Below, piece after piece: positions 1,405 to 64,000 of a stretch of 64,000 bases of DNA; position 1 is the stretch's first letter, and each line of letters starts with the position of its first letter. The notes under the pieces were generated by a model. The model did not search any database, had not been told where the DNA came from, and was given only the letters and a program-made list of their open reading frames with translations. The translations under genes were made by a program, and so were the position numbers. This stretch comes from Candidatus Rifleibacteriota bacterium (GTDB lineage: Bacteria; Muiribacteriota; Ozemobacteria; Ozemobacterales; Ozemobacteraceae). The stretch covers positions 192,001-256,000 of the forward strand of contig JANJUP010000022.1 of the NCBI GenBank assembly GCA_024710525.1, in the 5' to 3' direction.

Positions 1405-1610
1405 CGTGTCTCCCTGTTTCCGGTAAAATTTAACGTTAAATAATACCGCTGTTGATTGTACAAAGTTTATCAGAATTTTCTGATTTAAAAAACCACCTGC
1501 CGCCACAGAAGTCGATATTGTCGAAATTGAGTTGATAAAACGGCGGCTCTTCGTGCTATTATCGGCCGTGCAGGTTCCGCTTGATTTATCACTTTTTGCA
1601 GGAAAAGCCG

Positions 1611-3853: not shown

Positions 3854-3862
3854 AGATTCCCC

Positions 3863-4381
3863 TTATCGGTTGACGAAATGCCTGACGGCTTCGAGGTAAC
3901 GGGCGTTTTCTGACAGGTTTTTCTCTACCACTTTCAGCAGTTTCTGACGTTCAAAATCGTCGGGGTATATCTGTTTATCATTGACTGCGGCTTTAATTGC
4001 CTGGTAGTCAGGAGAGAACCTGACACCCATTTTCAGCCATGAGCCCATTTCGTCAGGCTGTTGGCCGGTTTTTACCGCGAGAATCTTGACTTTGCGCGGT
4101 GACGCCTGAGGCACTGCTTTGATGACACTGGCGTTGCTGAGAATCTGCAGGTCTTTTGAACTCTCAAAGAAGATTTCAAGATTTTCCAGAGTGCCGAGCC
4201 GACTTTCGATGATGGCAGTCAGCCTTATTTTGCCGGCCTCTTCAATCTGGTCGACAATCTGCAGAGAAATATTTGGTGGAAACACGTAAGCGAACTGATT
4301 GGCGTGCAGGCGCCCATGAATCAGTGACGTGAGAATCATAAGCATCATCAGTAGCTGCAGCCCGGCAACCTGTTTGATCAT
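3863..4381 (-). CDS. Hypothetical exported protein
   Basis: Start is the ATG at 4381 (GAGGG about 9 nt upstream); the track's TTG at 4387 adds 2 aa. An N-terminal hydrophobic segment is followed by a hydrophilic domain. It sits between the giant protein gene and the metalloprotease gene on the same strand. Confidence 0.45.
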   Translation of the reverse strand: MIKQVAGLQLLMMLMILTSLIHGRLHANQFAYVFPPNISLQIVDQIEEAGKIRLTAIIESRLGTLENLEIFFESSKDLQILSNASVIKAVPQASPRKVKILAVKTGQQPDEMGSWLKMGVRFSPDYQAIKAAVNDKQIYPDDFERQKLLKVVEKNLSENARYLEAVRHFVNR

Positions 4382-4446
4382 AAACAAACCCTCAGAATTT
4401 AGATTTCCCCAATTCTAATGATTTATCAGCAAACAGGCAATACACT

Positions 4447-13936: not shown

Positions 13937-14152
13937 CGTCTGTCATGCCGACCCTGACGGGCTTTTCGTTGATCAATACTGAGAGACTGAATGTCAGTTT
14001 CGACAGAACGGTTAATTGATACAAAACAATTTTAACCGAAAAAACTCAGATTTCCAAGACTCCCAAAAGGTTTTTTTTGCTCTGAATTCTCCGGTGCGGT
14101 ACAACCGGCTTTGAGAAAACTGACGAATTTCGTGAAAAAAATAGCAAAAGAC

Positions 14153-48772: not shown

Positions 48773-51700
48773 TTACTTCTGCTCGATTTCGTTTTTAAGA
48801 AGGTTAAGGTCTTCGGCAATTTCATTGAGAAGCTTTTTGATTTCGGGTATGTGAGCTACGGCCTGATCGAATTTGCCATCACGGCTCAGGAATTCAATCT
48901 CTCTGGCCAGTTCAAAGGCAGTGGCGGCGGCCAGCATGCCGGCAAGACCCTTGATCGAGTGCGCCGTCTCACGCAGCCGCTCACAGTTGCTGGTACTGAC
49001 ACAATCTTCGAGATCCTTCTGGAGAATGCCGGAACGTCGCTGAAAGATCTCGTTTATCTGAAGAATGTTTTCGGGTTTCTTCAGAACACGCAACTCGAGT
49101 TCATTGCGGTCGATCTGCTTCAGACCGCTGGTGGGCGCTTTTACGATGACTTCTTCGGTCGCCGGGATCGGGCTGGTTTCTTCGGTGATTTTGTCTGCGA
49201 AAATCTCAGAAATTGCCTTTAACAGGTCTTCCGGAAAATATGGTTTGCTGATGTAGCTCTGGGCTCCGGCATCCCTGGCCATGTTTTTTTCCTGTTCGGA
49301 AGCAAAGGCACTGATGGCTATGGCTGGGATCTCTGCGGCCGGTCCAGACATTTTGCGGATTTCTCTGAGGGCGGCGATGCCGTCCATGCGCGGCATTTGA
49401 ATATCCATCAGAACCGCGTCAAAACGGTTGGCTTTAAGGGCGGCAATGGCTTCGATACCGTCGTTGACACATGTCGCAGTACCGTTGAATTTTTCAATTA
49501 TCGAGCTGGCGAGGAAAAGATTGATTTCGTTGTCATCTGCGATGAGAAAATTGAGAGGCCGGCCATCTCTGGTGAGACTTACGCTTTCAGTTGTTTCAGG
49601 CGTATGAGAGGCTGCAATCGATTTTATGGTTACCGGTATTGAAACATTGAAGGTGGTCCCTTCTTCGATGTTTGTCACGACGCCGATCTTACCACCCATG
49701 AGATCGATCAGCTGCTTGCTGATTGACAACCCCAGACTGTTGTCCCGTTTTTCATCTTTTATGTAGGGGTCGTTGAAAACAAAGGCGCCAAAAAGGTTTT
49801 TCTGCATCTGTTCAGAATTTCCGGCCCGGGAATCGGAAACGGAGAACTCAATGATGCAGGCCGCGTGTGAAGTTTTCAGAAGTGAAGTATTCAGGCGCAC
49901 TTCACCGTGGTGGGCAAACTTAATGGCGTTGGCAAGAAGGTTAAGCAGAATCTGGCGAATGCGGTCCGGGTCCGAGATGACCATTTCAGGCACATCCGGA
50001 TTGATTTTTAGAAGTGTGCGGACCGACTTCTTTTCGGCCTGAAATTGAATTATTTCGACGAGATCTTTCAGCAGCAGATGCAGGTTGAACTGAACTGGAT
50101 TGATGGTGAGCTTTCCTGAGGCAATCTGCGCCAGGTCGAAGATGTCGTTGAGAAGCGTCAGCATCGACTTGCTCGAAGATCTGATCAGCTCAAGCATGTG
50201 TTTCTGTCGGTCATCGGCGCAATTTGAAGCGGCCAGCTCCGTCAGACCAATTATTGCAGTCATCGGTGTTCTGATTTCGTGGCTGGCATTGGCGAAGAAG
50301 CGCCCCTTCAGGGCATTGGCCTCTTCGGCGGCATTTTTGGCTTCTCTGAGTCGTGACTCGATTTCGCGGTGCATGGTAATATCGTGCAGAATCAGCAGCA
50401 GGGCCCTTTCCCTGTTGAATTCCATGATGGCGCCGGTTACCTCGGCCGAAAAAATTTCACCGGTCTGTTTTCTGAATTCGCGCTCGTGCTTGAACATTTT
50501 TTTTGAAGCACTGTGCCATGAATTGGTCAGATTGCGTTTTTTAGTCGGCATCAGATCGAAATAATTCATGCCTATCGCTGACTGGGTCAGCTGAAACTGG
50601 CGCAGCATGCTCTGATTGGCTTCTATTATCTTCAGGGTCACGAGAGAAACCACGAAAATGCTTTCAGGGGCATTATCGAAAAGGGTTTTGAAGCGGTTCT
50701 GGGCAACTTCGAGCGAGCGCATCACTTCTGCGGTGCGTGTAATACCATTCAGGATAACCACAAAGACAATAACAATCAGTAGAATTACCATCAAAACCCA
50801 TATCTGATTGTTGCGAACATTTGATTCCATCAGCATCAGAACTTTGCTGTCAAGCGTCTGCAACGGTTCGATGCCGAGCAGGTAGCGGGAAGCCTCGATC
50901 TCCGGAAGCTGCAGTTCGGGAAAGGCTTTGAGCGGGGTAATATTTCTGTTGGAGCGGTTCGCGATGGCAACCCGTCGGCCGAGATATGAATAGTCGCTTG
51001 AAAGAAAAACCGTTCCGGTGGCATCGGCGATCATGGCCGGGTGGTAGAGTCTGAGGGTTTTGTCGAGGTCGTCTAAATTACGCTTGACAGCACAAACACC
51101 GATTACCTGATTCTCGGGCCCGCGAATTGGATAGCTCGAATAAAACCCCAGGGTGCTTGTCAAAACGCCAATATCGATCTGTACGCCAGATTTGCCCTGC
51201 ATTGCAGATTTGAAATAATCACGGAATGAAAGGTCTTTGCCTATGAAAAGGTGTTCAAGATCTGATGAAGCATGGACAATGCCTTTCAGATCCATTACGT
51301 AGCAGATTGCTCCGGGATTATTGGCGGTAAAATTCTTCAAATAGCGGTTCAGACGCTCGAGGTTTTCGGGAGCGGGGTTGACGAAATAATCCGACATGAT
51401 CGGGGCCGAGCCCATGATGACTGATGAGGTTGACGCAAAGGCAAAGCGCTGGTCAACAATCTTGGAAAGCAGCTGAATAGTCTTTTCAAGCGTCAGGGTT
51501 GCATGCTGGTTCTGCTGCAGGGCCATTGAGTGTGACAGTCGCAGGCCGAACACAGTTACGCAAATGATAGAAATGAAGATTACGGCTGGAGCCAGTCGGC
51601 CAAAAGAAGTCTGCGTCGAGAGTTTCCCGGTGTTTTCGCGCAGATATCTCACGGCGATAACCAGAGCTGAAATACTGAGCAGGATTATCAGGTCAAGATG

Positions 51701-52297
51701 CAGAATCAGGTTAAGGACTTCTTCTGACAGCAGTGTGGCGGGAATTTCTTTAGTTACTGTGGCCAGATGCAGAAATGTTTGCAGCAGCACTGCGCAGATT
51801 GCCAGCAGAAAGCTTGAAGTTGCGACCAGGCGGTTTTCGGTTGCCAGATTTCGGGCCAGTTTAAGGCCTGCAAGCATTGCCGCACACTTGACGATCAGAA
51901 AAATGATTATCAGGCCGACATAAGTGTGCCCACCGGAAATCAGGTATAATCCGCCGATAATAGCCGCCAGGGGAATATGGAGCAGGTATGCCGGCAGTGC
52001 TTCGTCTTCATTGAACCAGGTTTTTCTGAAAAACTCTGCGACACAAAGTGTGCCGGCAAGGCGGACAAAGGCTTCGAACCAGAGAAAAACGCTCTCAGGG
52101 AAAAGGGAGTCGAACGCCATCAGAATTCTGCTTAATCCGGATGCAAAAACCCCAAGAGTCAGCCAGTGCAGCTTCAGATGCTCTTTGACTGGCGAAGAGG
52201 TTGAATTCAGCAGGGCGCCAAGAATTATCAGACACACTCCGCCGAGATAGACGTAGTAGCCTGGCAATAGAAGAAAAATGTCAGATAATGCGAGCAT
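48773..52297 (-). CDS. Hybrid sensor histidine kinase/response regulator (multi-TM sensor, PAS, HisKA, HATPase, REC, Hpt)
   Basis: 1174 aa. The N-terminal region has 7 or more TM segments, then a periplasmic domain, a further TM and a PAS domain. The H-box is SHEIRTPMTAIIGLTEL. HATPase motifs are NLLANAIKF and GLGLSISKQLIDLMGG. The receiver has DAVLMDIQMPRMDG. The C-terminal Hpt has AHSIKGLAGM. Confidence 0.85.
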   Translation of the reverse strand: MLALSDIFLLLPGYYVYLGGVCLIILGALLNSTSSPVKEHLKLHWLTLGVFASGLSRILMAFDSLFPESVFLWFEAFVRLAGTLCVAEFFRKTWFNEDEALPAYLLHIPLAAIIGGLYLISGGHTYVGLIIIFLIVKCAAMLAGLKLARNLATENRLVATSSFLLAICAVLLQTFLHLATVTKEIPATLLSEEVLNLILHLDLIILLSISALVIAVRYLRENTGKLSTQTSFGRLAPAVIFISIICVTVFGLRLSHSMALQQNQHATLTLEKTIQLLSKIVDQRFAFASTSSVIMGSAPIMSDYFVNPAPENLERLNRYLKNFTANNPGAICYVMDLKGIVHASSDLEHLFIGKDLSFRDYFKSAMQGKSGVQIDIGVLTSTLGFYSSYPIRGPENQVIGVCAVKRNLDDLDKTLRLYHPAMIADATGTVFLSSDYSYLGRRVAIANRSNRNITPLKAFPELQLPEIEASRYLLGIEPLQTLDSKVLMLMESNVRNNQIWVLMVILLIVIVFVVILNGITRTAEVMRSLEVAQNRFKTLFDNAPESIFVVSLVTLKIIEANQSMLRQFQLTQSAIGMNYFDLMPTKKRNLTNSWHSASKKMFKHEREFRKQTGEIFSAEVTGAIMEFNRERALLLILHDITMHREIESRLREAKNAAEEANALKGRFFANASHEIRTPMTAIIGLTELAASNCADDRQKHMLELIRSSSKSMLTLLNDIFDLAQIASGKLTINPVQFNLHLLLKDLVEIIQFQAEKKSVRTLLKINPDVPEMVISDPDRIRQILLNLLANAIKFAHHGEVRLNTSLLKTSHAACIIEFSVSDSRAGNSEQMQKNLFGAFVFNDPYIKDEKRDNSLGLSISKQLIDLMGGKIGVVTNIEEGTTFNVSIPVTIKSIAASHTPETTESVSLTRDGRPLNFLIADDNEINLFLASSIIEKFNGTATCVNDGIEAIAALKANRFDAVLMDIQMPRMDGIAALREIRKMSGPAAEIPAIAISAFASEQEKNMARDAGAQSYISKPYFPEDLLKAISEIFADKITEETSPIPATEEVIVKAPTSGLKQIDRNELELRVLKKPENILQINEIFQRRSGILQKDLEDCVSTSNCERLRETAHSIKGLAGMLAAATAFELAREIEFLSRDGKFDQAVAHIPEIKKLLNEIAEDLNLLKNEIEQK

Positions 52298-52320: not shown

Positions 52321-52476
52321 TCAGAAAAGCTGGAAGCCTGTTTTTTTCTTGATGGTTACGACAATTGCTGCGAATGAGCCGAGCAGGCAGCCAGCCCCGA
52401 GAATGAGAAAAAGAAAGCCCATCGCGCCGAGGGCCGCACCGGCGAAGCCGTAAATGTAGTTTTCCCAGTTTCTCAT
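52321..52476 (-). CDS. Small membrane protein (51 aa)
   Basis: ATG at 52476 with GGAGG 5 nt upstream. It has a single TM segment (GFAGAALGAMGFLFLILGAGCLLGSFAAIVV). It lies between speH and the histidine kinase gene. Confidence 0.5.
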   Translation of the reverse strand: MRNWENYIYGFAGAALGAMGFLFLILGAGCLLGSFAAIVVTIKKKTGFQLF

Positions 52477-52573
52477 AGTTCCTCCAGTTATTTCATTGTA
52501 CAGCTTATGTTTTTTTCGATGAAAAAGCAACCGAAAATCATCTGTTGGTGCTTAATTGGCGACCTGAGAAAAA

Positions 52574-52945
52574 TCAGGCTTCGGCAAGACTGCTGAGGCG
52601 GCGGAAAAGAATTTTCTCTGCGACATGATCGGGGCTGAATGCTTCTTTCAGCTGCTTATAGGCTTTTCTGGCTTTGTCGTGACTGCCGCAGGTGAAAATG
52701 TCGATCTGCACGGCCTGATGCTCGGGCCATGTATGCAGAGTTATGTGAGATTCGGTCAGCAGTGCCGCCGCGGTATAACCGGAGGGCTCGAACTGATGCG
52801 ACCTTATCAGAACACAGCTCAAGCCACTGGTTTCGATTGCGCGATGCAGAATCATTTCACCACTGTGGCTTCGCTCAAGCAGTTCTGGCCGGCAGCCGCT
52901 GAAATCGGCAATGATATGAATGGCATCCGGTCTCAGAGGGCCCAT
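52574..52945 (-). CDS. speH: S-adenosylmethionine decarboxylase proenzyme (small class 1a, SpeH-type)
   Basis: 123 aa. It matches bacterial/archaeal SpeH (IIADFSGC; the ESHITLHTWPE processing site at Ser of ESH). It overlaps the speE end by 13 nt. Confidence 0.85.
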   Translation of the reverse strand: MGPLRPDAIHIIADFSGCRPELLERSHSGEMILHRAIETSGLSCVLIRSHQFEPSGYTAAALLTESHITLHTWPEHQAVQIDIFTCGSHDKARKAYKQLKEAFSPDHVAEKILFRRLSSLAEA

Positions 52946-54474
52946 TTTTCCCAGCCTTCTTCGTAATATGATTTGACAACGTGAGTGTCGATGGTATTTA
53001 CGTCGGTTTCAACCCTGGCAATATCCGGTGGAAATCGGTTCATTACTTTGATGAAATCATTATTCACAAACCTTGCCGGCACAGTGATTTCGATATTCTG
53101 CCAGTCGAAAGGGGCATTCGAAGCCATGACAAAACCCCAGCTGCCAAAAGATGGAACGTAACAGTGATATGCTTCCGGCTGCAGATAAATGGTTCCTGAG
53201 GCTGTGTCGCTTTTAAAAAGCGGGTTTTCGATGGCAGCGAAGGTGTTGTAGATACACCAGAAAGCTTTATGGGCATAGAGAGGCGAAGTTGCCTGGGTTA
53301 CGATCTTGCCGCCGCGCGCCAGCTTGCCGGCCAGCAGCCGGTAAAAGGTTTTTGAATAAAGGCGGCTCAGCGACAGGTTATCGGGGTCGGGCAGATCGAT
53401 GATGATTACGTCATACATTTCCGGAACATTTTCGAGATATTTCCAGGCGTCGTCATTAACGATAAGGGTTTTGGGGTTGCGCATCGAGTCTTTGTTGAGG
53501 TCGCGCATCAGCAGATTGTCGCGGGCAAAAGTCGTTATGGCGGGGTCGATGTCCACTATGGTGATCTTTTCGACTTCGGCGAACTTGAGTATCTCTCGGG
53601 CGGCCAGGCCATCACCGCCACCGATAACCAGAATATTGCGGCGTGAATGGGCAGAAGCCATTGCCGGAAAAACCAGAGCTTCGTGATAACGGTATTCGTC
53701 CTGGCTGCTGAACTGGATGCTGCCGTTGATGAACATGCGAATATCATTTTTGGTGCGGGTAACGACGACACGCTGGTAGGGTGAAGTCGTTGAATAGATG
53801 ATTTCGTCTTTATAGAGAGTGTCTTCTGTGAAGGTCGAAATGTTGTCGGCGTAGACGAAACAGGTGCCAAGCAGAAGCATGCCGGTTACTGCCAGCGCCA
53901 GAAGGCTGTTGCGAGCTTTGAGACGGTCTTTGAAAACATAGATTGCCGAGGCGGCTACCGCCACGTTCATGGTACCGAACATCAGGCCGGTGCGAACCAA
54001 CCCCAGCTGCGGCACCAGAATGATCGGAAAAAGCAGCGAAGCGAACAGAGCGCCGGCGTAATCTACGGTCATGACATTCGAAACAACTATTTTAAGGGTG
54101 TTGTGTTCTTTGACAATGCGCAGGATGATTGGCAGTTCAAGCCCGATCAGCGTACCGATGGTCACCGAAACCAACAGCAGAAACGGCGTGTAGTTATCGA
54201 TGCGGGCAAAGGCTATGAACAGAACGATCGAGCTTAAGCCCCCGGCCATGCCGGTCAGAATTTCGACCAGCACGAACCAGTCGTGCAGTTTGTCGTTGAT
54301 GAAGCGCGATAAAAAAGAGCCAAGTCCCATCGAGCTCATAAACAGGCCGATTACCAGGGAAAACTGGTAAACAGAGTCGCCGACGAGGTAACTTGAAATG
54401 GTGCCGGCCAGCAGTTGATAAATCAGGCCGCAGACGGCAATAAGGAATACCGCGGTTAGGAGAAAAACCTGCAA
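52933..54474 (-). CDS. speE: Spermidine synthase (aminopropyltransferase) with an N-terminal multi-TM membrane domain (COG4262 type)
   Basis: The N-terminal ~200 aa carry about 7 TM segments. The PABS domain has ILVIGGGDGLAAREILKF, TIVDIDPAIT and VIIIDLPDPDN. TTG start with GAAAGG upstream. Confidence 0.85.
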   Translation of the reverse strand: MQVFLLTAVFLIAVCGLIYQLLAGTISSYLVGDSVYQFSLVIGLFMSSMGLGSFLSRFINDKLHDWFVLVEILTGMAGGLSSIVLFIAFARIDNYTPFLLLVSVTIGTLIGLELPIILRIVKEHNTLKIVVSNVMTVDYAGALFASLLFPIILVPQLGLVRTGLMFGTMNVAVAASAIYVFKDRLKARNSLLALAVTGMLLLGTCFVYADNISTFTEDTLYKDEIIYSTTSPYQRVVVTRTKNDIRMFINGSIQFSSQDEYRYHEALVFPAMASAHSRRNILVIGGGDGLAAREILKFAEVEKITIVDIDPAITTFARDNLLMRDLNKDSMRNPKTLIVNDDAWKYLENVPEMYDVIIIDLPDPDNLSLSRLYSKTFYRLLAGKLARGGKIVTQATSPLYAHKAFWCIYNTFAAIENPLFKSDTASGTIYLQPEAYHCYVPSFGSWGFVMASNAPFDWQNIEITVPARFVNNDFIKVMNRFPPDIARVETDVNTIDTHVVKSYYEEGWEKWAL

Positions 54475-54532
54475 AATTATGACCTTTCAGGCTTTCGAGA
54501 GCGAAAAGCCCGCTTGTAAAGAATGCAGTGAA

Positions 54533-54757
54533 TCAGTGCATGGCAGAAGCGATGATTATAGAAAGGCCGATCATGACCGAACCAATGATGATACCAAGTG
54601 AAGTGTTCTGATCGATTTCAATTTCCTTGCGCACCGAAAATGGCGAAATCTTGCAGATTACCCAGAAAGCGATGATATAAATTACCAGACCGATCAGAGA
54701 GTAGGCGATCGTCGAAAGAATCGGGCCGGTCGAGAGATCTGCTACGTTGGTTCCCAT
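54533..54757 (-). CDS. DUF350-family small membrane protein
   Basis: 74 aa with two TM helices. The sequence pattern is that of DUF350 (ILSTIAYSLIGLVIYIIAFWVI...GIIIGSVMIGLSIIIASAM). Confidence 0.7.
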   Translation of the reverse strand: MGTNVADLSTGPILSTIAYSLIGLVIYIIAFWVICKISPFSVRKEIEIDQNTSLGIIIGSVMIGLSIIIASAMH

Positions 54758-54811
54758 GTTATTTCTGCTCCAGATTTTATTTTGATGATCTGCGCCAGGC
54801 GCAGATAAAAG

Positions 54812-54994
54812 TTACTTACCGTGCATGAAACCGCGGTGTCCACCATGCGTATAAACACTGCGCTCACGAATATTTTTTTCCTTGCGGATCTGCGGTGTTG
54901 TCGAAAAGCCTTCTGGCCGCATGAAATCAGTTGCGATGGCCAGAACTGTAATCAGGCTGAAAATACCTGCGAACATCAGGGCTAGTTTATTCAT
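54812..54994 (-). CDS. Small membrane ORF (60 aa)
   Basis: Its start is coupled to the DUF4178 stop (TGATG). There is an N-terminal TM segment (LALMFAGIFSLITVLAIA). Confidence 0.45.
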   Translation of the reverse strand: MNKLALMFAGIFSLITVLAIATDFMRPEGFSTTPQIRKEKNIRERSVYTHGGHRGFMHGK

Positions 54995-56298
54995 CAGTCG
55001 TCATCCTCGTCGTCGTCATCGTCATGCCATCTTTTCTGCTCAAAGCTGAGGGCTTTGAAAAAGTAGGGGATGGCGAGCAGCAGGCAGGTGAAAAACCAGG
55101 CCAGCGTGTAGTGCCCAAGGCGAACGCCTTTGTAGATGTAAACATTGACATTGCCGAGCGAAAAGTCGGGTGCCGGCTGTTCAGATTCACCTGGCGCCCC
55201 TTCACCTTCTAATGACAGCTTGTAATCGCCAGGTTCTGGAATCCTGAAATAAGAAACGACTTCTGTGTCGCCTTCTGACCAGTATTCACCGTCTTCGTAG
55301 CCTTCGTAGAAGGCAAGAACGGTCGGCATGGTGAAAAACTGGTTTTCTTCGTTCCGGTCGACCACCTTGACGTCAAAAAATGACCAGGCGTTTTTGAGAT
55401 TCGGTGTGTTAACTGAAATGCCATAAAGGGAACCGGGCGTTTCAACCTTGAATTCTTTCGAGGTTTCGCCTTCCGTGAAAAGCTGGGTGCCGAATTTATG
55501 CTGCATCACCGGGGTGCCGCCTGAGGAAATTCCAAAATACATCAGCAGAGCCAGCCCGGCTGACAGCAAAGCGCCCTGCGACATGGCAGCGAAGGTCGGG
55601 TTGGTAACGAACGGCTGGCAACAGAACACGGAGAATGGCTGAATGTTTTCGATTCTGAACGCTTCGCTGATTTCGCCGGTCGAGATATATTCGCCCCAGA
55701 AGAATTCCTGCTCCTGTCCGCGCATTTCGATTGAATACATATAGGGCGGGCAGACGCCATCCATGTATCTGATCTTTTCGCCCTGCTTTGCCTGCCAGGT
55801 CATTTCGCCTTCTACGTAAGATATCTGTGCTCCGGCACTTTCAAATACCTTGAAGGCGCGGTCGCGTACCGTGAATTTTGTTTTACGCGGGCTGACAATT
55901 TCTACCGACGTTTCGGGCAGATCTTTGACCTCGTGCATCAATACGTAGTGCCCGTCTTCATAGCAGAGCCAGGCGTAGCCGTGTGTGTGCGAGAAGAGCA
56001 GATATTCGAGCCAGCGGTAGACTTCGCCGTCTTCTCTTTGCTCATACTGGATTACACCGATGGCGGTGAACAAAACCCCTCTGAGTTTGGCTGTGGCTCC
56101 TACTTTAATGGGCAAAAAGGGGCGTTTCTGATTTAAAAACTTGTGCAGCAGTTTGAATTGATCTTTGCTGTCGAGGCATGAGCCGCAATACTGGCAGACT
56201 ATAGACCTGACGTTGTGGCCGCCGCGCAGCTCGATCGAACCGCCGCACTGGGTGCAGCTGAGTTTTCGCAGTTTCAGAGGCTGGTTTGCTGTGGCCAT
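54994..56298 (-). CDS. Zinc-ribbon plus DUF4178 domain protein with a C-terminal TM segment and poly-Asp tail
   Basis: The N-terminus has CTQCGGS...CQYCGS (two CxxC pairs). A DUF4178-like region follows. The C-terminal TM segment (AWFFTCLLLAIPYFF) is followed by DDDDDEDDD. GAGGT RBS. Confidence 0.7.
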   Translation of the reverse strand: MATANQPLKLRKLSCTQCGGSIELRGGHNVRSIVCQYCGSCLDSKDQFKLLHKFLNQKRPFLPIKVGATAKLRGVLFTAIGVIQYEQREDGEVYRWLEYLLFSHTHGYAWLCYEDGHYVLMHEVKDLPETSVEIVSPRKTKFTVRDRAFKVFESAGAQISYVEGEMTWQAKQGEKIRYMDGVCPPYMYSIEMRGQEQEFFWGEYISTGEISEAFRIENIQPFSVFCCQPFVTNPTFAAMSQGALLSAGLALLMYFGISSGGTPVMQHKFGTQLFTEGETSKEFKVETPGSLYGISVNTPNLKNAWSFFDVKVVDRNEENQFFTMPTVLAFYEGYEDGEYWSEGDTEVVSYFRIPEPGDYKLSLEGEGAPGESEQPAPDFSLGNVNVYIYKGVRLGHYTLAWFFTCLLLAIPYFFKALSFEQKRWHDDDDDEDDD

Positions 56299-56300
56299 GG

Positions 56301-56915
56301 TTAAACCTCAGAAATTTCGAAAGGGTCGATCCAGACGCCACGGTAGCATTCTATGCCGCCGGTCTGGTATTCGATGGTAAACGATGCGCGCTTGGGGCCA
56401 AGAAGATCGATATAATTGTATTTTTCGCCGGGTACCGCTCTGAACGGCAGTTCGCCCTGCGCTCCGATCATAGTTGCGGTATTCATTTCGATTACCGTCA
56501 TGCGAATACGGTTGATGTTCAATACACTGCCGATTTTGAGGCTTTCGTAAGCCGGAACGTTCAGTTTGTCCTGGACAAGGGTTTCAATGGCAATTTCGCC
56601 TTCGTCGACCGATACCCAGCTTTCTTTGCCGTTATCGCTTCTGACGAACCATTCATCCCACCAGCCGTCACCGTAGTCGTACCTGACCCGGCCGACCGGC
56701 GAAAACCGCCAGTCTTTATGTCTGAAAGTTCGGCCAATCCGAAAAATGCTGGGGGTGTCGGTAAGAACGGCTGATTTTCCGATGTCTTCAAGCTTGCCAT
56801 CCTGCAGAAAACTGGTCGTATTACACGCCGGGCATACCAGAATCTGAGAAGATCTGGTAACCTGCGTGATCTGGTTGCCGCAGGAAGGGCAGGTAAGAGT
56901 TATGGCCATCCTCAA
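56301..56915 (-). CDS. Zinc-ribbon plus DUF4178 domain protein (shorter paralog)
   Basis: CPSCGN...CPACNT zinc ribbon followed by a DUF4178-like body. It is in tandem with the larger paralog. The start is the TTG at 56915 or the ATG at 56909. Confidence 0.65.
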   Translation of the reverse strand: MRMAITLTCPSCGNQITQVTRSSQILVCPACNTTSFLQDGKLEDIGKSAVLTDTPSIFRIGRTFRHKDWRFSPVGRVRYDYGDGWWDEWFVRSDNGKESWVSVDEGEIAIETLVQDKLNVPAYESLKIGSVLNINRIRMTVIEMNTATMIGAQGELPFRAVPGEKYNYIDLLGPKRASFTIEYQTGGIECYRGVWIDPFEISEV

Positions 56916-56976
56916 AACCCCCGGCAGTTGATTTATGCCTTAATGATATAACCAAATCGCAGCAAATGTCTACTGC

Positions 56977-59334
56977 TCAGGAAGCGTTGTCGGTAGAGGG
57001 TTGATCGGCTTCTGGCTTTTTGTCGTCGGCAAAGTCAGATGAGAGAAAGCGGTGCAGCAGGCAGACCTGTGCCGGCAAGATCGTCAGTTCACAGAACAGG
57101 GCGACGATTATCGTCATTGACAGCAGCAGACCGAAATAGATAACCGATTTGATACTGGCAAAAACCATGAAGAGAAAGCCGATCGAATAAATCAGTGAGG
57201 TTGCCACGATTGCCGGGCCGGCTTCGCGGATCCCGTCGACCACGGCTGCAACCGGCGCAAACTTCGATCTTGAAGGATCGTAGAACAGGTAGAGGGCGTG
57301 AATGGTATCGTCAACGACGATACCCATGGCGATTGCCGCAATGGTAACCGTGGCGATATCGAGTTTTATGCCAAACCAGCCCATAAAACCAAGTGTGAAC
57401 AGAATCGGAAAGATATTCGGGAGAATAACCAGTATCATTGCTTTCAGGCGCCGGAAAAGGATAAATATGGCTCCGAAAACGAAGACGAAGGCCGAGGCGA
57501 AGCTGTTGATCTGGCTCCAGGTGACATAGCTGATGATGCGGGCATACAGAGGCACGTAGCCGCCAAATTTCCAGGTGGTGCCGCTGCCGCCGAAATTTTT
57601 CTCTAGGATTGCCTGAGTTTTCTGTTCAAATTCATAAAGCCCGGCGGCGCTGATCATCGGAACTCTTATCGTCAGACGGGTTTCGCTGTAATCAGGGTTG
57701 TCGGTCATATATTCGAGATCGTTATCCGGGTCTGATTCATAGAGCAGCAGCAGCTGGCTGACCGCTTCATCGCTGGCCGGAACCACATAGGTTTCAGAGG
57801 TTGGCCCATCGCTCATGACTTCATTCATTTTCTTGAGCACATCGAGAATCGAGGCTGGTTTTTCCATGCCCGGAACTGCAAGAAGTTCTTTGATTGTCTG
57901 ATCGAGGCGGCGCAGAAATTCAACTTTCTTGATACCTTCTTTCTGGCCGGTTATCAGACGTACTTCCAGCGGCAGATAATTGCCGTAGTTTGCTTCGACC
58001 GCGTCGCTGTCCACTCTTATCGGGTTGCTTTCATGCAGAAAGCCCATCGAGTAGGTGTCGACCTGCAGTTTTGATATGCCATAAATTGACATGACCGAAA
58101 GAACAGCCACAATTACCAGAATGTGTACGTAATAGTTTGGCATGCGCTGCATCCACCAGTTGACCGGGGTTTCGAAAGGTCTTCTGATCTGAACTTCTTC
58201 TTTGAGATCTATCTGACCGAGAACGAAGGCTGCGACAATCATCGAAACGACGTATTCGGCCATGCAGGCAAAGGCCGCGAAAGCACCAAACACGCGTAAT
58301 ACATCGAGCGGGCTGGTTACGAGGGCGAGAAAACCGGCAAAATTGGTGAGAGAAGTAAAAAGACAGGGTGAAAGAACTTCGTAAAAAATGTGTTCGAGGC
58401 CCTCTTCGCGGTTCTTTTTGACCAGCGCAGAATTGAAACAGTAGTTATTGTAGGCATAGGCCACATCTGAAACTGAAAGAATCATCATCAGGGTTGGCAG
58501 AACAATGGTGACCATGTTGAAGTTCTGCCCGAACAGGCCATAAAAACCGAGAAAGCCGAGGCCGCTGAAGAACATGGCGCCAAGCGCCATGAACAGAAAA
58601 ACCCATGAACGGTAGAGAATGAAGATCAGCGAAGCGATGGCCACATAGGCGACTGCGTTGAATACCGCCCCATCCTGAATGCTGAGGCGGTTGAGCTCGT
58701 TATACATGACACCCATGCCGGCCAGCTTGAAGTTGAAGCCGTTGAGCTTCTGTCGCATTGCATCGATGATTTCCGGACGGCGGCTGTCCATGTCGGGCGT
58801 TGCAACGGGTTCGGCGATAATGATCGCCCAGGTGGAACTGGCATTCTGCAGTATTCTTTGTTTGAACGGGTCATCCATGAATCGCTGCTGGATTTTTTCG
58901 GCCTCTTCAATTGTGTTAACCGGGCCGCTCATCAGATCTTCTATGATCAATTCTTCGCCACTCAGGCCTATGAACGGCGAAAGACCAACACTGAGAACCC
59001 GTTTGAAATTATGAGTGTCGTCTTCTATCTCTTTTGAGGCTTTGTAGATGGCCGAAAGCATGGCCGGCGAAAACATGCCGTCGCGGCTGCAGTCGACCAT
59101 TGCCAGAATTACTTCGTCGTTGCCGTAGCGCTTTTTGAATTCATTGTAGGCTTCAAGCGCCGGGTCACCTTCGAGAAACCAGAGTTCGAGACTGTTATCG
59201 ATGCTGATGTTGCGTGAAAAATAGAGTCCGCCGACCGAAACAATCACCAGCAGCGTGAAAAGCAGGCGCCGCCATCTGATGATGAAGCCGGCTCCCCACT
59301 TGAAATAAGCATCTGCGAACTTGGTATTCGACAT
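56977..59334 (-). CDS. MMPL/RND-superfamily exporter (two 6-TM bundles with periplasmic loops)
   Basis: 785 aa with duplicated MMPL-type TM blocks, resembling the HpnN/MmpL-like lipid exporters. Confidence 0.8.
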   Translation of the reverse strand: MSNTKFADAYFKWGAGFIIRWRRLLFTLLVIVSVGGLYFSRNISIDNSLELWFLEGDPALEAYNEFKKRYGNDEVILAMVDCSRDGMFSPAMLSAIYKASKEIEDDTHNFKRVLSVGLSPFIGLSGEELIIEDLMSGPVNTIEEAEKIQQRFMDDPFKQRILQNASSTWAIIIAEPVATPDMDSRRPEIIDAMRQKLNGFNFKLAGMGVMYNELNRLSIQDGAVFNAVAYVAIASLIFILYRSWVFLFMALGAMFFSGLGFLGFYGLFGQNFNMVTIVLPTLMMILSVSDVAYAYNNYCFNSALVKKNREEGLEHIFYEVLSPCLFTSLTNFAGFLALVTSPLDVLRVFGAFAAFACMAEYVVSMIVAAFVLGQIDLKEEVQIRRPFETPVNWWMQRMPNYYVHILVIVAVLSVMSIYGISKLQVDTYSMGFLHESNPIRVDSDAVEANYGNYLPLEVRLITGQKEGIKKVEFLRRLDQTIKELLAVPGMEKPASILDVLKKMNEVMSDGPTSETYVVPASDEAVSQLLLLYESDPDNDLEYMTDNPDYSETRLTIRVPMISAAGLYEFEQKTQAILEKNFGGSGTTWKFGGYVPLYARIISYVTWSQINSFASAFVFVFGAIFILFRRLKAMILVILPNIFPILFTLGFMGWFGIKLDIATVTIAAIAMGIVVDDTIHALYLFYDPSRSKFAPVAAVVDGIREAGPAIVATSLIYSIGFLFMVFASIKSVIYFGLLLSMTIIVALFCELTILPAQVCLLHRFLSSDFADDKKPEADQPSTDNAS

Positions 59335-59370
59335 CTCTGATTCCTTTACTTCTGGAAATTCTGTCTGCAG

Positions 59371-59404
59371 TTACTGATATTTCAGCACCAACACCCGGTG
59401 TTGG
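59371..59404. repeat. Perfect 14-bp inverted repeat (hairpin) in the MMPL-esterase intergenic region
   Basis: ttcagcaccaaca-cccgg-tgttggtgctgaa. There is no clear U-tract. It could be a terminator, attenuator, RNA-processing site or protein-binding site. Confidence 0.5.
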
Positions 59405-59413
59405 TGCTGAAAG

Positions 59414-60220
59414 TCAGATTGAATGAAAGTTGTGCAGAAAATTCCGGCTCTGTTCCTGAGTCATGCGGTGCTTCGAGGTCAGAAAGCCTGCCCGGTCAAA
59501 TTTGCCGAGAAAGTAGATGATCATCTTTTTCCACCAGGGCCAGTCGTGGTTGACATCATAGCCCCACAGGTCGAGCAACACCGGAACACCGGCGGCGCTG
59601 AGATTGTCGCACATGTGAATCGCTTCGCCGGTCCACTCTTCCCAGGCGCCCTGACCGCTGCAGACGATCAGAAGGTTATTTTTCAGCTTTTCGACAATGT
59701 CTTTGCCCTTGATATCGCCGCTGTAACGCATCGGGTTGTGCAGATGCATTTCGTTGCTGTAAAAGCCCTGCATCGCGAATTCGATGTTGTAACAGCCGCT
59801 GAGAGCGATTCCTGAGTCAAAAGCCTCTGGCTGGCGCAGTGCGAAATTGGCTGTATGAAAGGCGCCGAAGCTGCAGCCGTGGGCGATAACCCCGGCCCCT
59901 TCATGCCCGTCGTTCATGATGTGTGGGATGACATCTTCTCTGACTGCACGGTCGTAGTCGTTGGCGCGCTTGACCCGCTCAACCGGGTTGGTGCGGGCAA
60001 ACCAGCTTTCGTGGTCGATGCTGTCGATGCAGTAGACATGGATCTTACCGCTTTGAATGAATGGTGCCAGGGTATCGATCATGCCGAAGTTTTCGTAATC
60101 GAAGAAGCGGCCTTCCTGTGAAGGAAAAACCACCATCGGCTTGCCGGAAGTGCCGTAAACCAGCATTTCCATCTGTCTGCCCAGGGCGTTGCTGTGGATA
60201 GTGCGGTATTCCCTGTTCAT
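59414..60220 (-). CDS. Esterase-family alpha/beta hydrolase (putative esterase PF00756-like: esterase D / enterochelin esterase / mycolyltransferase superfamily)
   Basis: 268 aa. It has a GxSxG-type nucleophile region (IAHGCSFGAF). GGGAGG RBS. The start overlaps the ATP-grasp stop (ATGA). Confidence 0.75.
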   Translation of the reverse strand: MNREYRTIHSNALGRQMEMLVYGTSGKPMVVFPSQEGRFFDYENFGMIDTLAPFIQSGKIHVYCIDSIDHESWFARTNPVERVKRANDYDRAVREDVIPHIMNDGHEGAGVIAHGCSFGAFHTANFALRQPEAFDSGIALSGCYNIEFAMQGFYSNEMHLHNPMRYSGDIKGKDIVEKLKNNLLIVCSGQGAWEEWTGEAIHMCDNLSAAGVPVLLDLWGYDVNHDWPWWKKMIIYFLGKFDRAGFLTSKHRMTQEQSRNFLHNFHSI

Positions 60221-61377
60221 CAGGCCTCCCAGGTAATGTCACGAATGACATTCTTGAGCTCGTCGAGATTGGCTGAGCGGGCCAGATAGCCCCAGTGACC
60301 CATGACTTCGTATTCGATCGGGTTCATTGGCTGGCTGTGAACGATGCGGTCGCCCCATTTGGCGTAGAGCTGATCGTGGGAATATTTATAAGGGCGGTTA
60401 TGCTTGCGGCTGATGAAGGCACAGTGATAGCGGCGGGTAAACGGTCGCTTTGGTTCGTGCCCGGCCATGATCGATGCCCACCAGTCGTAGACGTCGATAT
60501 CGCAGGCAAAATTGAACATGTGGGTGGTCAGGCCTCCGGGGGGGCGCATATTGATTTCGAGAGCCTGGAATTTGCCATTTTTCAGCTTGAAAAATTCGAT
60601 ATGGAAAAACTTCTCACGCACGTTGGCGGCTTTGACAATGGCTCTGCCGTATTTTTCGAGTTCGGCCGGTATATCGATAAGGGAGTAATACCAGACGTTT
60701 TCGTTGTTTTTCACGACCTTGTGAATGTCGTTACTGAAATAATGCGATGTACAGAAAACAATATTGCCGTCTTTGTCGGTGAGGCCGTCGAATGACTGCA
60801 GTTCGCCATCGACGAATTCTTCCATGAAATAGTCGTAATCCTGTTTGATTGAGAAGAAATGTTTGAGGTCTTCTTCGGTGCGGATTGTATAGGTATCAGC
60901 AGCGCCAACCCCGATGTCGGGCTTGATGAAAACCGGGTAATGGCCATTGATGAATTCCTGACACTGCTTGATGTCTTTGATGACAATACCTCTGGCTGCT
61001 GGAACCTGGGCTTGTTTAAAGATGTCTTTCATCATCGACTTGCGTTTGATGAACTGCAGATTGTTTGATTTGGGGCCGGTGACGTTGTAGGCATCGCGAA
61101 CCAGTGCTTCAAGTTCTATCCAGGGTTCGAGATGTGATTCAACCCGGTCGATTTCGCCAAGGTGTTCTTTGAAAAATCCGGCCGCATCGACGACCTGTTG
61201 ATTGTTCTCAAGTCGTTCGACCCGGTAATGTCCGCTGAGAGACTGTCTGACTCTCGGATCAAGGGCTTCGTCAGGCAGATCAGAGATGCCAAAGACTCTG
61301 ACACCATATTTAGCGAGAGATTCAACGAACTGAGAGTAGTGTGAGGGGTAATGTGGCGAAATATAGACGAGATTCAT
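60220..61377 (-). CDS. ATP-grasp domain protein (probable carboxylate-amine ligase)
   Basis: ATP-grasp signatures YPVFIKPDIGVGAADT and ALEINMRPPGG are present. I prefer the ATG at 61377 (GGAGA 7 nt upstream); the track's ATG at 61410 adds 11 aa. Confidence 0.7.
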   Translation of the reverse strand: MNLVYISPHYPSHYSQFVESLAKYGVRVFGISDLPDEALDPRVRQSLSGHYRVERLENNQQVVDAAGFFKEHLGEIDRVESHLEPWIELEALVRDAYNVTGPKSNNLQFIKRKSMMKDIFKQAQVPAARGIVIKDIKQCQEFINGHYPVFIKPDIGVGAADTYTIRTEEDLKHFFSIKQDYDYFMEEFVDGELQSFDGLTDKDGNIVFCTSHYFSNDIHKVVKNNENVWYYSLIDIPAELEKYGRAIVKAANVREKFFHIEFFKLKNGKFQALEINMRPPGGLTTHMFNFACDIDVYDWWASIMAGHEPKRPFTRRYHCAFISRKHNRPYKYSHDQLYAKWGDRIVHSQPMNPIEYEVMGHWGYLARSANLDELKNVIRDITWEA

Positions 61378-61543: not shown

Positions 61544-64000
61544 ATGAGTAAGAGAATACTGGCCGCGTTACTGGTTGTTATACACCTTTTGACGCTTGGC
61601 CCAAGTTGGGGTGCCGCTGCAACTGCGACTGCGACGAAGCAGAAAAAGAAGCCGACCACCGCAGCCACGGCCACCAAAAAGAAGACCACGGCAAAGCCTG
61701 CAACCAAACCGGCAGAGAAAAAAGAAACTACTGCTGCCAAAAAGCCGGCCTCGACCAAAAAACCTGCTACAACAGCAAAGAAACCTGCCAGCACCAAACA
61801 GACTTCAGCTGCGACAGCGCCAAAAACGACTTCAAAGGCCCTGACTGCTAATCAGCAGCAGGTCCTTGAACATCTGCAGATGCTCCAGGAAGTCTGGCAG
61901 CGCAAGATAACCCTTGAATTTCTTGCCGACAAGCGCTCTGATAAGCTGCTTGCCGAAATTCTCGCCGATTTCCCGAAAAAGCTGCAGAGCAACTTCGTCT
62001 CTAATATCCGTGGCGATTACCAGGCCGAATTTATGGCCAACTATGCCGCCAAATCAGACGAAGAGACCAGTCGCGCCTATGACATGTTCAAAGATCAGCC
62101 AGCTCTCGACCCGGTTCTGGGTGCAGTAATCAAGCAGTCTGCTTCGCCCCTCGAACTTGCTTATTTCGATCTGGTCAAAAAAGTGACCACTCGCCGCAAG
62201 TTTCAGGCAAATAACGACCCCAGCCCCGAAATCAAGAAGCTCGACACTTTCTGGCAGACCGTCTACGGCAAGATGCGCGAAAATGCCAATAAAGACCGCT
62301 ACGATGCAATCGCTGCGCTCTATAAAGATGCTTCTGCCAAAGATTTTCCGATTCACTGGTATGATGATGCCCAGCATGCGGTTGCTTTCGAAACCGAAGG
62401 CCGCAAAACCGGCACACCACACAAAAAAGGCCGCAAAAAATGGACAATTCTCGCCTATATCTGCGCCGACAACGATCTCGAACATTTCGGTCTCGTTGAT
62501 ATCAATGAAATGGAACAGGTCGGCAGCAGCGATAATGTAAATATCGTCGCTCAGATCGACCGCATGGCCGGCGGTAAGGGTGATACCATCGCTGATGGCA
62601 ACTGGGTTGGCACCAGAAGATATTTTGTCGACAAAGACAACGATATGAGCAAGGTCAGCAGCAAGATGGTCATGAATCTTGGCGAACAGTGCATGGGCAA
62701 CAAAGCGACGCTGGCCGATTTCCTTAAATGGGGCGTTAAAACCTATCCGGCCGATAACGTCGTCGTCATCGTCTGGAACCATGGCGCCGGCTGGTCAGGC
62801 ATCGCGCACGATGAAGAGTCAGACCGCATGCTCAGTATGACCGACGTTTCTTATGCGCTGCGAGAAGGCCAGAAAGAACTTTCAAAGGTCAACGGCAAAG
62901 AATCGAAGTTTGCCATTGTCGACTTTGATGCCTGTCTGATGGGCACTATCGAAGTTGCCTACGAAATCTCTGATACTGCCCAGTATATGGTTGCATCTGA
63001 AGAGAACGAGCCCGGCAACGGCATGCCCTACGCCGATTATCTCGCTCCTCTAGTGAAGAACCCAGATCTGAGCCCCGCCGAAATGACCAAACGCATGGTC
63101 GGCACCTATGTCTATTCTTATGCCAAGGGCGGTTCGGCTTCTAACTCATTTGTTAAAGGCTCGCCGGTAACCAAGGCCGCAACCGACCTCAGCAAAATCG
63201 GCTCACTGGTTAAAAAGTTCGACAAACTTGGTCAGGCACTGCTGGCCAATCACGAGGCCTATTCTGACCTGCTGGTCGCCGAAGGCGGTCGTTTCGCCTC
63301 TATCAAACGCTATTCTGATGAAACGCTCGTCGACCTGATCGACTTTACCCACAAGCTTGCCCAGATGCCCGAAGCACCCTCTGACATCAGAGAACTCTGC
63401 ATCGATATCATCAAGTCTTACGGTTACCCGGTCGAAAACGATCGTCTGGCCAAGCCGGTTCTCATAACCAGCACCAAGCCCGGCGTCGTCATCTGGGGCT
63501 ACAATGGCTGGCGCATGCCTCCCAAAGAACTGTGGCCTTCAGGCACCCGGGTTTTCCAGTCACGACTGGCTCTGACGCCGCTGCGCGAAATGCAGGGTGG
63601 TGGTTATTCCTGCCAGATCGGGCCTTTTGAGCCGGTTGTTGATGAAGCCCTCGAAAAGAAGGTCTTTGTTGAAGAAATCAACTACCAGGTAGTTGAGCAG
63701 AACGGTAAAGCTCAGGACAAACGCCGCATCAAGCAGGGCAAAGAATATCTGATCGTTTCGAAGTTCCCCGAAACCTCACCGATGGTAATCGAAGGCCACA
63801 CCCAGGGTATGGGCGACAGCCACGGCCTCTCGATCTATTTCCCGCCTTCCTATAATTTCCGCAATAACTACAAGGCTCTGAAGTTTGCCAAAGATACAAG
63901 CTGGGATGAATTCCTCGAAAAAACGCCGGTGTTCAAACGCAAAGCCGACGTGTTGCTGTGCGGTCAGATGGTCCAGGATCCGATGACTTTACCTCTGGTG
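61544..64000 (+). CDS. Secreted clostripain-like cysteine peptidase (family C11) with an N-terminal Lys/Thr/Ala/Pro-rich linker. The first 819 aa lie in the window and the gene continues past the window end.
   Basis: ATG at 61544 with AGGAGA 7 nt upstream. The frame is open to the window end, so it is absent from the ORF track. There is a signal peptide (LAALLVVIHLLTLGPSWGAAA). About 80 aa of KKKPTTAATATKKKTTAKPATKPAEKK low-complexity sequence follows. The C11 catalytic dyad context is present (VVVIVWNHGAGWSG and VDFDACLMG). Confidence 0.75.
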   Translation, partial: MSKRILAALLVVIHLLTLGPSWGAAATATATKQKKKPTTAATATKKKTTAKPATKPAEKKETTAAKKPASTKKPATTAKKPASTKQTSAATAPKTTSKALTANQQQVLEHLQMLQEVWQRKITLEFLADKRSDKLLAEILADFPKKLQSNFVSNIRGDYQAEFMANYAAKSDEETSRAYDMFKDQPALDPVLGAVIKQSASPLELAYFDLVKKVTTRRKFQANNDPSPEIKKLDTFWQTVYGKMRENANKDRYDAIAALYKDASAKDFPIHWYDDAQHAVAFETEGRKTGTPHKKGRKKWTILAYICADNDLEHFGLVDINEMEQVGSSDNVNIVAQIDRMAGGKGDTIADGNWVGTRRYFVDKDNDMSKVSSKMVMNLGEQCMGNKATLADFLKWGVKTYPADNVVVIVWNHGAGWSGIAHDEESDRMLSMTDVSYALREGQKELSKVNGKESKFAIVDFDACLMGTIEVAYEISDTAQYMVASEENEPGNGMPYADYLAPLVKNPDLSPAEMTKRMVGTYVYSYAKGGSASNSFVKGSPVTKAATDLSKIGSLVKKFDKLGQALLANHEAYSDLLVAEGGRFASIKRYSDETLVDLIDFTHKLAQMPEAPSDIRELCIDIIKSYGYPVENDRLAKPVLITSTKPGVVIWGYNGWRMPPKELWPSGTRVFQSRLALTPLREMQGGGYSCQIGPFEPVVDEALEKKVFVEEINYQVVEQNGKAQDKRRIKQGKEYLIVSKFPETSPMVIEGHTQGMGDSHGLSIYFPPSYNFRNNYKALKFAKDTSWDEFLEKTPVFKRKADVLLCGQMVQDPMTLPLV

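Follow-up and report, generated by a model that had tools for sequence, protein, structure and literature searches.

A compact run of ten genes occupies positions 61377 to 52321 of the minus strand in a 64,000-nt stretch of DNA from Candidatus Rifleibacteriota bacterium (assembly GCA_024710525.1, contig JANJUP010000022.1, positions 192,001 to 256,000), to which we refer in its entirety as the window. In the order of transcription the run encodes an ATP-grasp ligase, a putative esterase, an MMPL-type transporter, two zinc-ribbon/DUF4178 proteins, a 60-amino-acid microprotein, a DUF350 protein, an aminopropyltransferase (SpeE) fused to a transmembrane (TM) domain, an S-adenosylmethionine (AdoMet) decarboxylase (AdoMetDC) and a 51-amino-acid open reading frame (ORF); a hybrid histidine kinase gene follows. 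An earlier reading, made from the sequence alone, had proposed that these ten genes form a single system for the synthesis and export of a polyamine conjugate. We put at about 65% the probability that the 9-kb run consists of four separable units set side by side on one strand, of which only a six-gene core (56915-52574) is coherent, and that this core is a membrane aminopropyl-transfer cassette.

Exact sequence matches and the names of homologues assign the window to an Ozemobacteraceae genome of the kind recovered from anaerobic-digester-type metagenomes. The inventory of genes on which the sequence-only reading was built proved sound. All ten minus-strand ORFs were found at the coordinates that it gave, the same ten genes were returned by independent gene calls on contigs of the same species, and Pfam and NCBIfam profile searches of the window proteins upheld every one of its domain calls, PF00756 only as a borderline match. 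Its description of the genes as tightly spaced apart from one gap of 80 nt (79 nt by our count) holds for three junctions at which neighbours overlap (ATP-grasp/esterase by 1 nt, the larger DUF4178 gene/microprotein by 1 nt, and SpeE/AdoMetDC by 13 nt) and fails for others, at which gaps of 61, 54, 58 and 97 nt are present.

The six-gene core

The core, all of it on the minus strand, opens with two genes for proteins that join a zinc ribbon to a DUF4178 domain. The first (DUF4178s; 56301-56915) encodes a soluble protein of 204 amino acids with a CxxC...CxxC pattern (PF13785, 50.4 bits), and the second (DUF4178L; 54994-56298) a protein of 434 amino acids (PF13785, 59 bits) in which the zinc ribbon is followed by the DUF4178 beta-domain at about residues 65-205, a TM helix at 234-258, a beta-sandwich at 262-390 that is predicted to be extracytoplasmic, a further TM helix at 396-424, an FExxRW motif and a poly-Asp/Glu tail. 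Membrane anchoring and a poly-Asp tail had been noticed earlier in one of the two DUF4178 proteins; both features are real, belong to the 434-amino-acid protein and are kept among its homologues. The 60-amino-acid microprotein (54812-54994) comes next, its start overlapping the DUF4178L stop by 1 nt, and after it a DUF350 (YjfL-family) protein of 74 amino acids with two TM helices (54533-54757; PF03994, 47.6 bits), which is half-length, covering profile positions 5-65 of 133. The DUF350 gene ends 58 nt upstream of that for the TM-fused aminopropyltransferase, TM-SpeE, a position that is conserved across loci.

TM-SpeE (52933-54474; 513 amino acids) has an N-terminal domain of about seven TM helices, visible in the hydropathy profile as some seven hydrophobic segments within residues 1-210, and it scores 596 bits against NF002956/PRK03612 (cutoff 472) and 114 bits against PF01564. 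Its GGGDG and DLPDP motifs are present, and the motifs for catalysis and for binding of decarboxylated AdoMet (dcAdoMet) are intact. The catalytic domain lies closest to the thermospermine synthase ACL5 (6bq2; 6.5e-35) and to the Thermus thermophilus triamine/agmatine aminopropyltransferase (1uir, 3anx), with which it has QxxDExxYHE, GGG(D/E)G and DLxDP in common; those enzymes are soluble and lack a 7TM domain, whereas the window enzyme has one. Fusions of this kind reportedly failed to rescue an E. coli speE deletion; they are said to occur in hosts without spermidine, and DUF350 is said to have been noted as a partner clustered with them. The core closes with the proenzyme of a class 1b pyruvoyl AdoMet decarboxylase (52574-52945; 123 amino acids; PF02675, 111 bits; TIGR03330, 97 bits against a cutoff of 75.65), which carries the ES/H self-processing motif LLTESHITLHTWPE (LLTE-SHITLHTWPE) and FTCG. 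The sequence-only reading had named these six core members correctly, the small membrane ORF included. A search with the PADLOC defence-system models gave a sole match, of SpeE to mad2, which reflects a generic methyltransferase fold, and so assigned the genes to no defence system.

To follow the core through other genomes we aligned DUF4178L homologues and scanned one genome per species, which yielded 265 confirmed relatives; 80 loci with 10-kb flanks, 60 of them from outside the Rifleibacteriota, were then compared by tblastn of all window proteins and by ORF clustering, and the synteny sample as a whole comprised about 110 related loci (cited below by their L numbers). In almost all of the 80 genome loci DUF4178L has DUF4178s immediately upstream, and the order DUF4178s, DUF4178L, microprotein, DUF350, TM-SpeE is kept across several phyla. 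It holds in Rifleibacteriota, in Thiotrichales and other Gammaproteobacteria, in Alphaproteobacteria (Rhodobacterales, Geminicoccales and Neomegalonema), in Campylobacterota, and in one planctomycete and one metagenome-assembled genome of the Victivallales. TM-SpeE lies directly downstream in 44 of the 60 non-Rifleibacteriota loci, most of the others ending at a contig edge. Wherever the contig of a Rifleibacteriota locus reaches beyond TM-SpeE, AdoMetDC adjoins the core; among the 60 other loci it does so in only 3.

What surrounds the core outside this phylum is diverse. Homologues of the ATP-grasp, esterase and MMPL proteins were detected by tblastn near the core in 0/60 of the non-Rifleibacteriota loci. 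The 96 immediate core neighbours that we sampled carry 117 Pfam families, and over half of these neighbours are on the opposite strand; the recurring membrane or polyamine families among them are Band_7/SPFH (4), AdoMet_dc (2) and Orn/Arg decarboxylase (2), and the few generic families that recur two to four times include histidine-kinase and response-regulator domains and radical SAM. ATP-grasp, esterase, MMPL and PspA proteins are all missing from the 96. A gene that combines Band_7_1 with a zinc ribbon stands directly upstream of DUF4178s in several Gammaproteobacteria, and Band_7/SPFH genes are found beside the core in varied phyla and positions (L007, 17775-19801; L031, 8328-9344 and 13942-14889; L054; L045).

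The microprotein matched nothing in Pfam or NCBIfam, but a homologous ORF of 50-67 codons lies between DUF4178L and DUF350 in almost every locus, in five phyla (L030-L089 included). These small proteins carry a single hydrophobic helix at the N-terminus, a motif of the S[VI]R.GS type and a tail that is basic or rich in Gly, with a mean net charge of +3. The final residue is Lys in 31 of 31 aligned lineages, preceded by Gly in 23 of them, and we found no earlier description of this invariant C-terminal Lys. Because the microprotein is kept after the DUF4178 pair even where TM-SpeE is not adjacent (L038, L061, L075), its tightest partner is DUF4178L and not SpeE.

Units on either side of the core

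The first two genes of the run form one of the separable units. The ATP-grasp carboxylate-amine ligase (60220-61377; 385 amino acids; PF13535, ATP-grasp_4, 37 bits) has a start that differs by gene caller, at 61377 (which gives the 385 residues), 61395 or 61410. A profile search of the Protein Data Bank gave RizA (4wd3) as its top match at 2.6e-20, and its AlphaFold2 model (mean predicted local distance difference test score 91.7) retrieved with Foldseek 4wd3 at 8.7e-25, 3vot at 2.9e-19 and also YwfE/BacD, with L-amino-acid ligases leading PurK by about 5-8 orders of magnitude in E-value. PurK and biotin carboxylases rank well behind the L-amino-acid ligases in both profile and structure matches. 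Because the housekeeping models score far below cutoff (purK TIGR01161, 19.2 against 318 bits; Ddl TIGR01205, 20 against 246 bits), because Pfam detected no GSP_synth domain (PF03738) at E <= 0.01, and because L-amino-acid ligases are the best matches, the profile and model comparisons indicate that this protein is L-amino-acid-ligase-like and of a different family from PurK, Ddl and YjfC. Grouping with PurK or Ddl, which had been named beforehand as an outcome that would undo the conjugate-synthesis proposal, is opposed by the profile, Foldseek and NCBIfam scores alike. The protein shares a three-domain ATP-grasp fold with the L-amino acid ligases RizA (4wd3), BL00235 (3vot) and YwfE/BacD (3vmm, 3wnz), although its identity to the characterised members is only 12-16%, and an obligatory hydrolase partner is a feature of the window protein and not of those enzymes.

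That partner is an alpha/beta serine hydrolase of 268 amino acids (59414-60220), assigned to the PF00756 'putative esterase' family at a borderline 22.9 bits (cutoff 22); it has a GCSFG nucleophile elbow and an HDW motif, and most of its homologues bear PF00756. The ATP-grasp family has 2270 matches and the esterase family 1240, with parallel identity tiers. In five of five independently sampled contexts (L090-L094: two Bacteroidota-like contigs, a second Ozemobacteraceae locus, GCA_040772725 and one Marinimicrobia contig) the two genes are side by side among unrelated neighbours, with no polyamine genes. The partners in these Bacteroidota-like, Marinimicrobia, Rifleibacteriota and other genomes are an ATP-grasp protein of about 386 amino acids and a PF00756 hydrolase of about 245-268. 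A 270-amino-acid gene product beside a 60%-identical ATP-grasp gene in L008 was considered as a diverged esterase and set aside, BLASTP finding no similarity. The pair would thus be an autonomous, widely distributed ligase/hydrolase module, and we found no described function for such a two-gene unit.

Directly after the esterase stop, in the 79-nt gap that precedes the MMPL gene, lies the perfect hairpin to which the sequence-only reading had drawn attention (59380-59412, minus strand). We verified its 15-bp inverted repeat, which has a 3-nt loop (TTTCAGCACCAACAC-CGG-GTGTTGGTGCTGAAA; -24.6 kcal/mol). No U-run was found 3' of it, and it was not among the entries of a consensus scan. Several lineages carry terminator-like hairpins 3' of their esterase gene: those of L021 and L029, at the matching position, reach -27 kcal/mol, and that of L007 is a canonical terminator complete with a U-run. 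The window hairpin is likely a transcript boundary or a stability element between the ligase/hydrolase unit and the genes downstream. A scan for sigma-70 promoters found 9 against 9.2 expected, which is not above chance, and Rifleibacteriota promoters may differ from that model.

The second unit is a single gene for a 785-amino-acid MMPL/RND (HAE3-like) transporter (56977-59334). PF03176 matches it in two stretches (58.8 bits), TIGR00921 (HAE3) scores 137 bits, under its cutoff of 352, and the hydropathy profile has two hydrophobic blocks, as expected of an MMPL domain pair with about 12 TM helices. The gene stands beside the core only in the closest relatives (L001-6, L010-16, L024, L095-98 and similar loci), and a metagenome scan found homologues of 90%, 70% and 53% identity in surroundings unrelated to these; L099 is an example, in which a 90%-identical MMPL gene adjoins genes for an H+-pyrophosphatase and a VTT/DedA protein. 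It appears to be a recent, lineage-specific insertion.

The third unit lies beyond AdoMetDC. Its first gene, the tenth of the run, is most likely a single-TM ORF of 51 codons (52321-52476) that starts at ATG 52476 behind a GGAGG, and its second is the hybrid histidine kinase (48773-52297; 1174 amino acids; multi-TM, with dCache_1, PAS, HisKA, HATPase_c, REC and Hpt domains). The 51-codon ORF had been counted as part of the polyamine module, but it travels with the kinase instead, standing directly upstream of it also in loci in which Band_7 genes separate the two from the core or the core is missing. An element, GTTGC(A/T)TTTT...ATA..TGTACA, precedes the ORF in three genomes regardless of the upstream gene (window, 52477-52573, minus strand; L102, 6078-6218; L109, about 13840-13943), and the spacer between MMPL and the ORF in L102 aligns with that between AdoMetDC and the ORF in the window, both carrying GTTGCaTTTT...TGTACA. 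To judge from this conservation the element is probably a promoter or operator, and the small ORF and the kinase would form their own transcription unit.

The kinase is collinear with the core in Rifleibacteriota only, and in most Rifleibacteriota two opposite-strand Band_7 genes lie between AdoMetDC and the kinase. We considered the kinase as a regulator of the core and saw no indication of such a link, as those Band_7 genes intervene in most relatives, the kinase unit has an upstream element of its own, and the kinase is still in place where the core is missing. The window lineage has lost the two Band_7 genes. The kinase has an unusual sensor layout, with about eight hydrophobic segments before dCache_1 and one after it; no cognate DNA-binding response regulator lies near it, the next genes encoding a Na/Pi cotransporter and a radical-SAM protein.

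The ligase/hydrolase pair adjoins the core in about 14 Rifleibacteriota loci, while L028 has the core without the pair. In the same genomes unrelated, divergently transcribed upstream genes (Peptidase_C11 and at least three others), the downstream kinase and the Na/Pi transporter are equally collinear, so that the adjacency of pair and core carries little weight; on this comparison of gene order it is largely inherited regional collinearity. The slot between the esterase and DUF4178s varies in content: it is empty in L017-L023 and L027, holds an aminotransferase gene in L007 and L026, is taken up by MMPL in the window and in the relatives closest to it, and has both aminotransferase and MMPL in L012, L015 and L109. 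L102 (Ga0116142_10003642, 516-9922) has the ATP-grasp, esterase, aminotransferase, MMPL, 51-codon ORF and kinase genes, and all six core genes are absent from it. Between the window and this close relative the cassette shows a natural polymorphism, present in the one and absent from the other. The clusters of L016 (labelled Erysipelotrichia) and L017 (labelled Methylomirabilis) are 65-83% identical to those of Rifleibacteriota in the same order, and these contigs are, to judge from that likeness, probably mis-binned Rifleibacteriota.

The suggestion that the MMPL, esterase and ATP-grasp genes extend the core into one system for conjugate synthesis and export is therefore largely unsupported by synteny. 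Judged by the outcome that the sequence-only reading had itself named as refuting, a lack of synteny in related genomes, it fails for the MMPL gene, which keeps its place only among the closest relatives and has 90%-identical copies elsewhere, and essentially fails for the ATP-grasp and esterase genes, which lie beside the core in one Rifleibacteriota clade only.

Upstream of the run, a large Peptidase_C11 (clostripain-family) gene (61544-64000, plus strand) diverges from the ATP-grasp gene and continues past the window end; the first 300 or so residues of its product have no domain match. The segment 61480-61850 is compositionally repetitive on both strands. The largest ORF of the window, of 2287 codons, lies at 4447-11310 on the minus strand.

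Relation to described systems

The core association is not new, having been described from computational work (Ravi 2024; Li 2019). In mSystems, Ravi et al. 2024 (PMC11237479) reported operons that contain a 7TM-spermine/spermidine-synthase, DUF350/YjfL, a lipoprotein and DUF4178, an example being Shewanella AAN56744-AAN56747, and that also carry a CesT/Tir-PspA dyad; they cite Li et al. 2019 (Biochem J, PMID 31467246) for linkages to AdoMetDC and for 'aminopropylation of other substrates', whereas the other citing papers that we found draw on Li et al. only for methods or for class 2 AdoMetDC. Our literature search for DUF4178 found only this one paper (PMC11237479). The core is therefore a known unknown, its association being on record in Ravi 2024 and Li 2019 and DUF4178 in no other paper that we found, and the earlier remark that DUF350, DUF4178 and membrane SpeE form a recurrent and uncharacterised association is borne out by both the survey of loci and the literature.

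Ravi et al. (PMC11237479) further describe separate operons that link DUF350 to an ATP-grasp protein resembling glutathionylspermidine synthetase (YjfC). In these operons, of the E. coli yjfIJKLMC type, the PspA-like YjfJ and the DUF350 protein YjfL accompany YjfC, which is related to that synthetase. They resemble the window in that DUF350 is near an ATP-grasp amide ligase and in having a flavour of polyamine metabolism. They differ in the ligase itself, as the window protein belongs to the PF13535 family, is paired with a PF00756 hydrolase and mostly has no DUF350 or polyamine genes nearby.

With the published cassette the window shares the TM-fused aminopropyltransferase, DUF350, DUF4178 and class 1b AdoMetDC, the membrane setting and a nearby Band_7/SPFH association. 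The CesT/Tir-PspA dyad, a mark of the second group of Ravi et al., is not among the ten genes of the window, and a PspA linkage for the window cluster was rejected, there being no PspA or CesT among those ten or among the 96 sampled core neighbours. Unlike the published operons, the window has two DUF4178 paralogues, one of which spans the membrane and has a beta-sandwich ectodomain and an acidic tail; its DUF350 protein is a half-size form of 74 amino acids with two TM helices, where theirs has eight; and in the slot in which they list a lipoprotein it has the microprotein with C-terminal Lys, which has no lipobox Cys. What the window has is a sub-architecture that lacks PspA and includes the microprotein and a pair of DUF4178 genes.

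The sequence-only reading had also drawn a parallel with PA4773-PA4775 of Pseudomonas aeruginosa. This locus is said to encode SpeD2 and SpeE2 and to supply a surface polyamine under the control of PmrAB. We take the two to be alike in having a dedicated AdoMetDC and aminopropyltransferase apart from the housekeeping enzymes, and presumably in a role in envelope protection and a link to a two-component system. To our knowledge PA4773-PA4775 has no DUF350, DUF4178 or TM fusion.

Competing explanations and the proposed role of the core

The core genes might simply serve ordinary polyamine synthesis, with AdoMetDC and a membrane-tethered spermidine or thermospermine synthase supplying bulk polyamine and the DUF proteins being accessory or unrelated. 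TM-SpeE does pass the 'polyamine aminopropyltransferase' equivalog (596 against 472 bits) with its motifs intact, and AdoMetDC passes an equivalog model and overlaps SpeE. We nevertheless think this unlikely, because across phyla TM-SpeE stays in strict gene order with DUF350, the microprotein and both DUF4178 genes, which would not be expected of a housekeeping enzyme; AdoMetDC, moreover, is mostly not adjacent outside the Rifleibacteriota, and the published inference is of a non-putrescine substrate (PMC11237479, citing Li et al. 2019). Quite unlikely, in our judgement, is a scheme in which all ten genes cooperate in this lineage, a polyamine being made at the membrane, ligated by the ATP-grasp protein or released by the esterase, exported by MMPL and placed under kinase control. 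Such a scheme draws on the compact one-strand layout, on the adjacency of pair and core in the Rifleibacteriota loci, three of which have a changed upstream flank, on the ATP-grasp protein being of an amide-forming ligase type, and on the tie of DUF350 to a polyamine-ligating ATP-grasp family in other operons. It must, however, contend with an MMPL gene that is missing from most Rifleibacteriota clusters and has a 90%-identical copy elsewhere, with a pair that is autonomous in all five other contexts with no polyamine genes nearby, and with a core that does without the pair in 60/60 loci outside the phylum and in L028. L102, which has the pair, MMPL and kinase but no core, the hairpin or terminator between units, the missing GSP_synth (PF03738) signal and the collinearity of the whole region within the clade speak against it as well.

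The division into four units around a coherent core, which we prefer, has some observations to answer for. L012, L013 and L015 are the loci that keep pair and core together despite a changed upstream flank, and the pair is on the core's strand and stays beside the core throughout one Rifleibacteriota clade. Read-through across the window hairpin is possible, because that hairpin has no U-tract. By analogy with DUF350 and YjfC, a partnership between the ligase and the core is conceivable, because DUF350 is linked elsewhere to a glutathionylspermidine-synthetase-like ATP-grasp protein; a lineage-specific functional recruitment of the pair to the core nonetheless strikes us as quite unlikely. The mechanism set out below for the core is, for its part, inferred from sequence.

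In that mechanism the class 1b AdoMetDC, as its family membership and intact motifs show, makes decarboxylated AdoMet, and the membrane-anchored aminopropyltransferase, working at the cytoplasmic face of the membrane, would take the aminopropyl group from it and hand it to an amine acceptor. The nearest relatives of its catalytic domain, thermospermine synthase and the triamine/agmatine aminopropyltransferase of T. thermophilus, are enzymes whose acceptor pockets are large. DUF350, the microprotein with its C-terminal Lys and the DUF4178 pair would act as a membrane partner or sensor complex of the aminopropyltransferase. DUF4178L is predicted to span the membrane with the zinc ribbon, DUF4178 domain and acidic tail inside and the beta-sandwich outside, and might serve to link the enzyme to an envelope signal or to a cationic product.

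A more specific proposal is that the microprotein is itself the non-putrescine acceptor, its C-terminal Lys being aminopropylated, possibly repeatedly, by TM-SpeE while the acidic tail of DUF4178L docks its basic tail. The final Lys is invariant despite divergent, low-complexity tails, the gene is translationally coupled to DUF4178L, and its basic tail is complementary to the conserved poly-Asp tail of that protein. The side chain of lysine is putrescine-like, with four carbons and an amine, and epsilon-aminopropylation of lysine is known from diatom silaffins; the proposal would also account for the 'non-putrescine substrate'. Yet the microprotein is present in the three loci without an adjacent TM-SpeE, and its N-terminal segment could be a signal peptide, which would put the tail outside the cell and away from dcAdoMet. 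We hold this proposal to be very unlikely as it stands. If true, it would make the core a bacterial protein-lysine polyamination system on a DUF4178/DUF350 membrane scaffold, fed with dcAdoMet by the adjacent AdoMetDC.

The ATP-grasp/PF00756 pair, which is found across several phyla and has no assigned function, is a useful lead in its own right, and within the core an unannotated microprotein with an invariant C-terminal Lys offers a concrete candidate for an acceptor or partner. The cassette is widespread (among genomes dereplicated by species there are 265 confirmed relatives of DUF4178L alone), and published work suggests that its product is not a normal polyamine. Splitting the core from its passengers shows which six genes belong together, and stops a 'polyamine-conjugate exporter' annotation from spreading.

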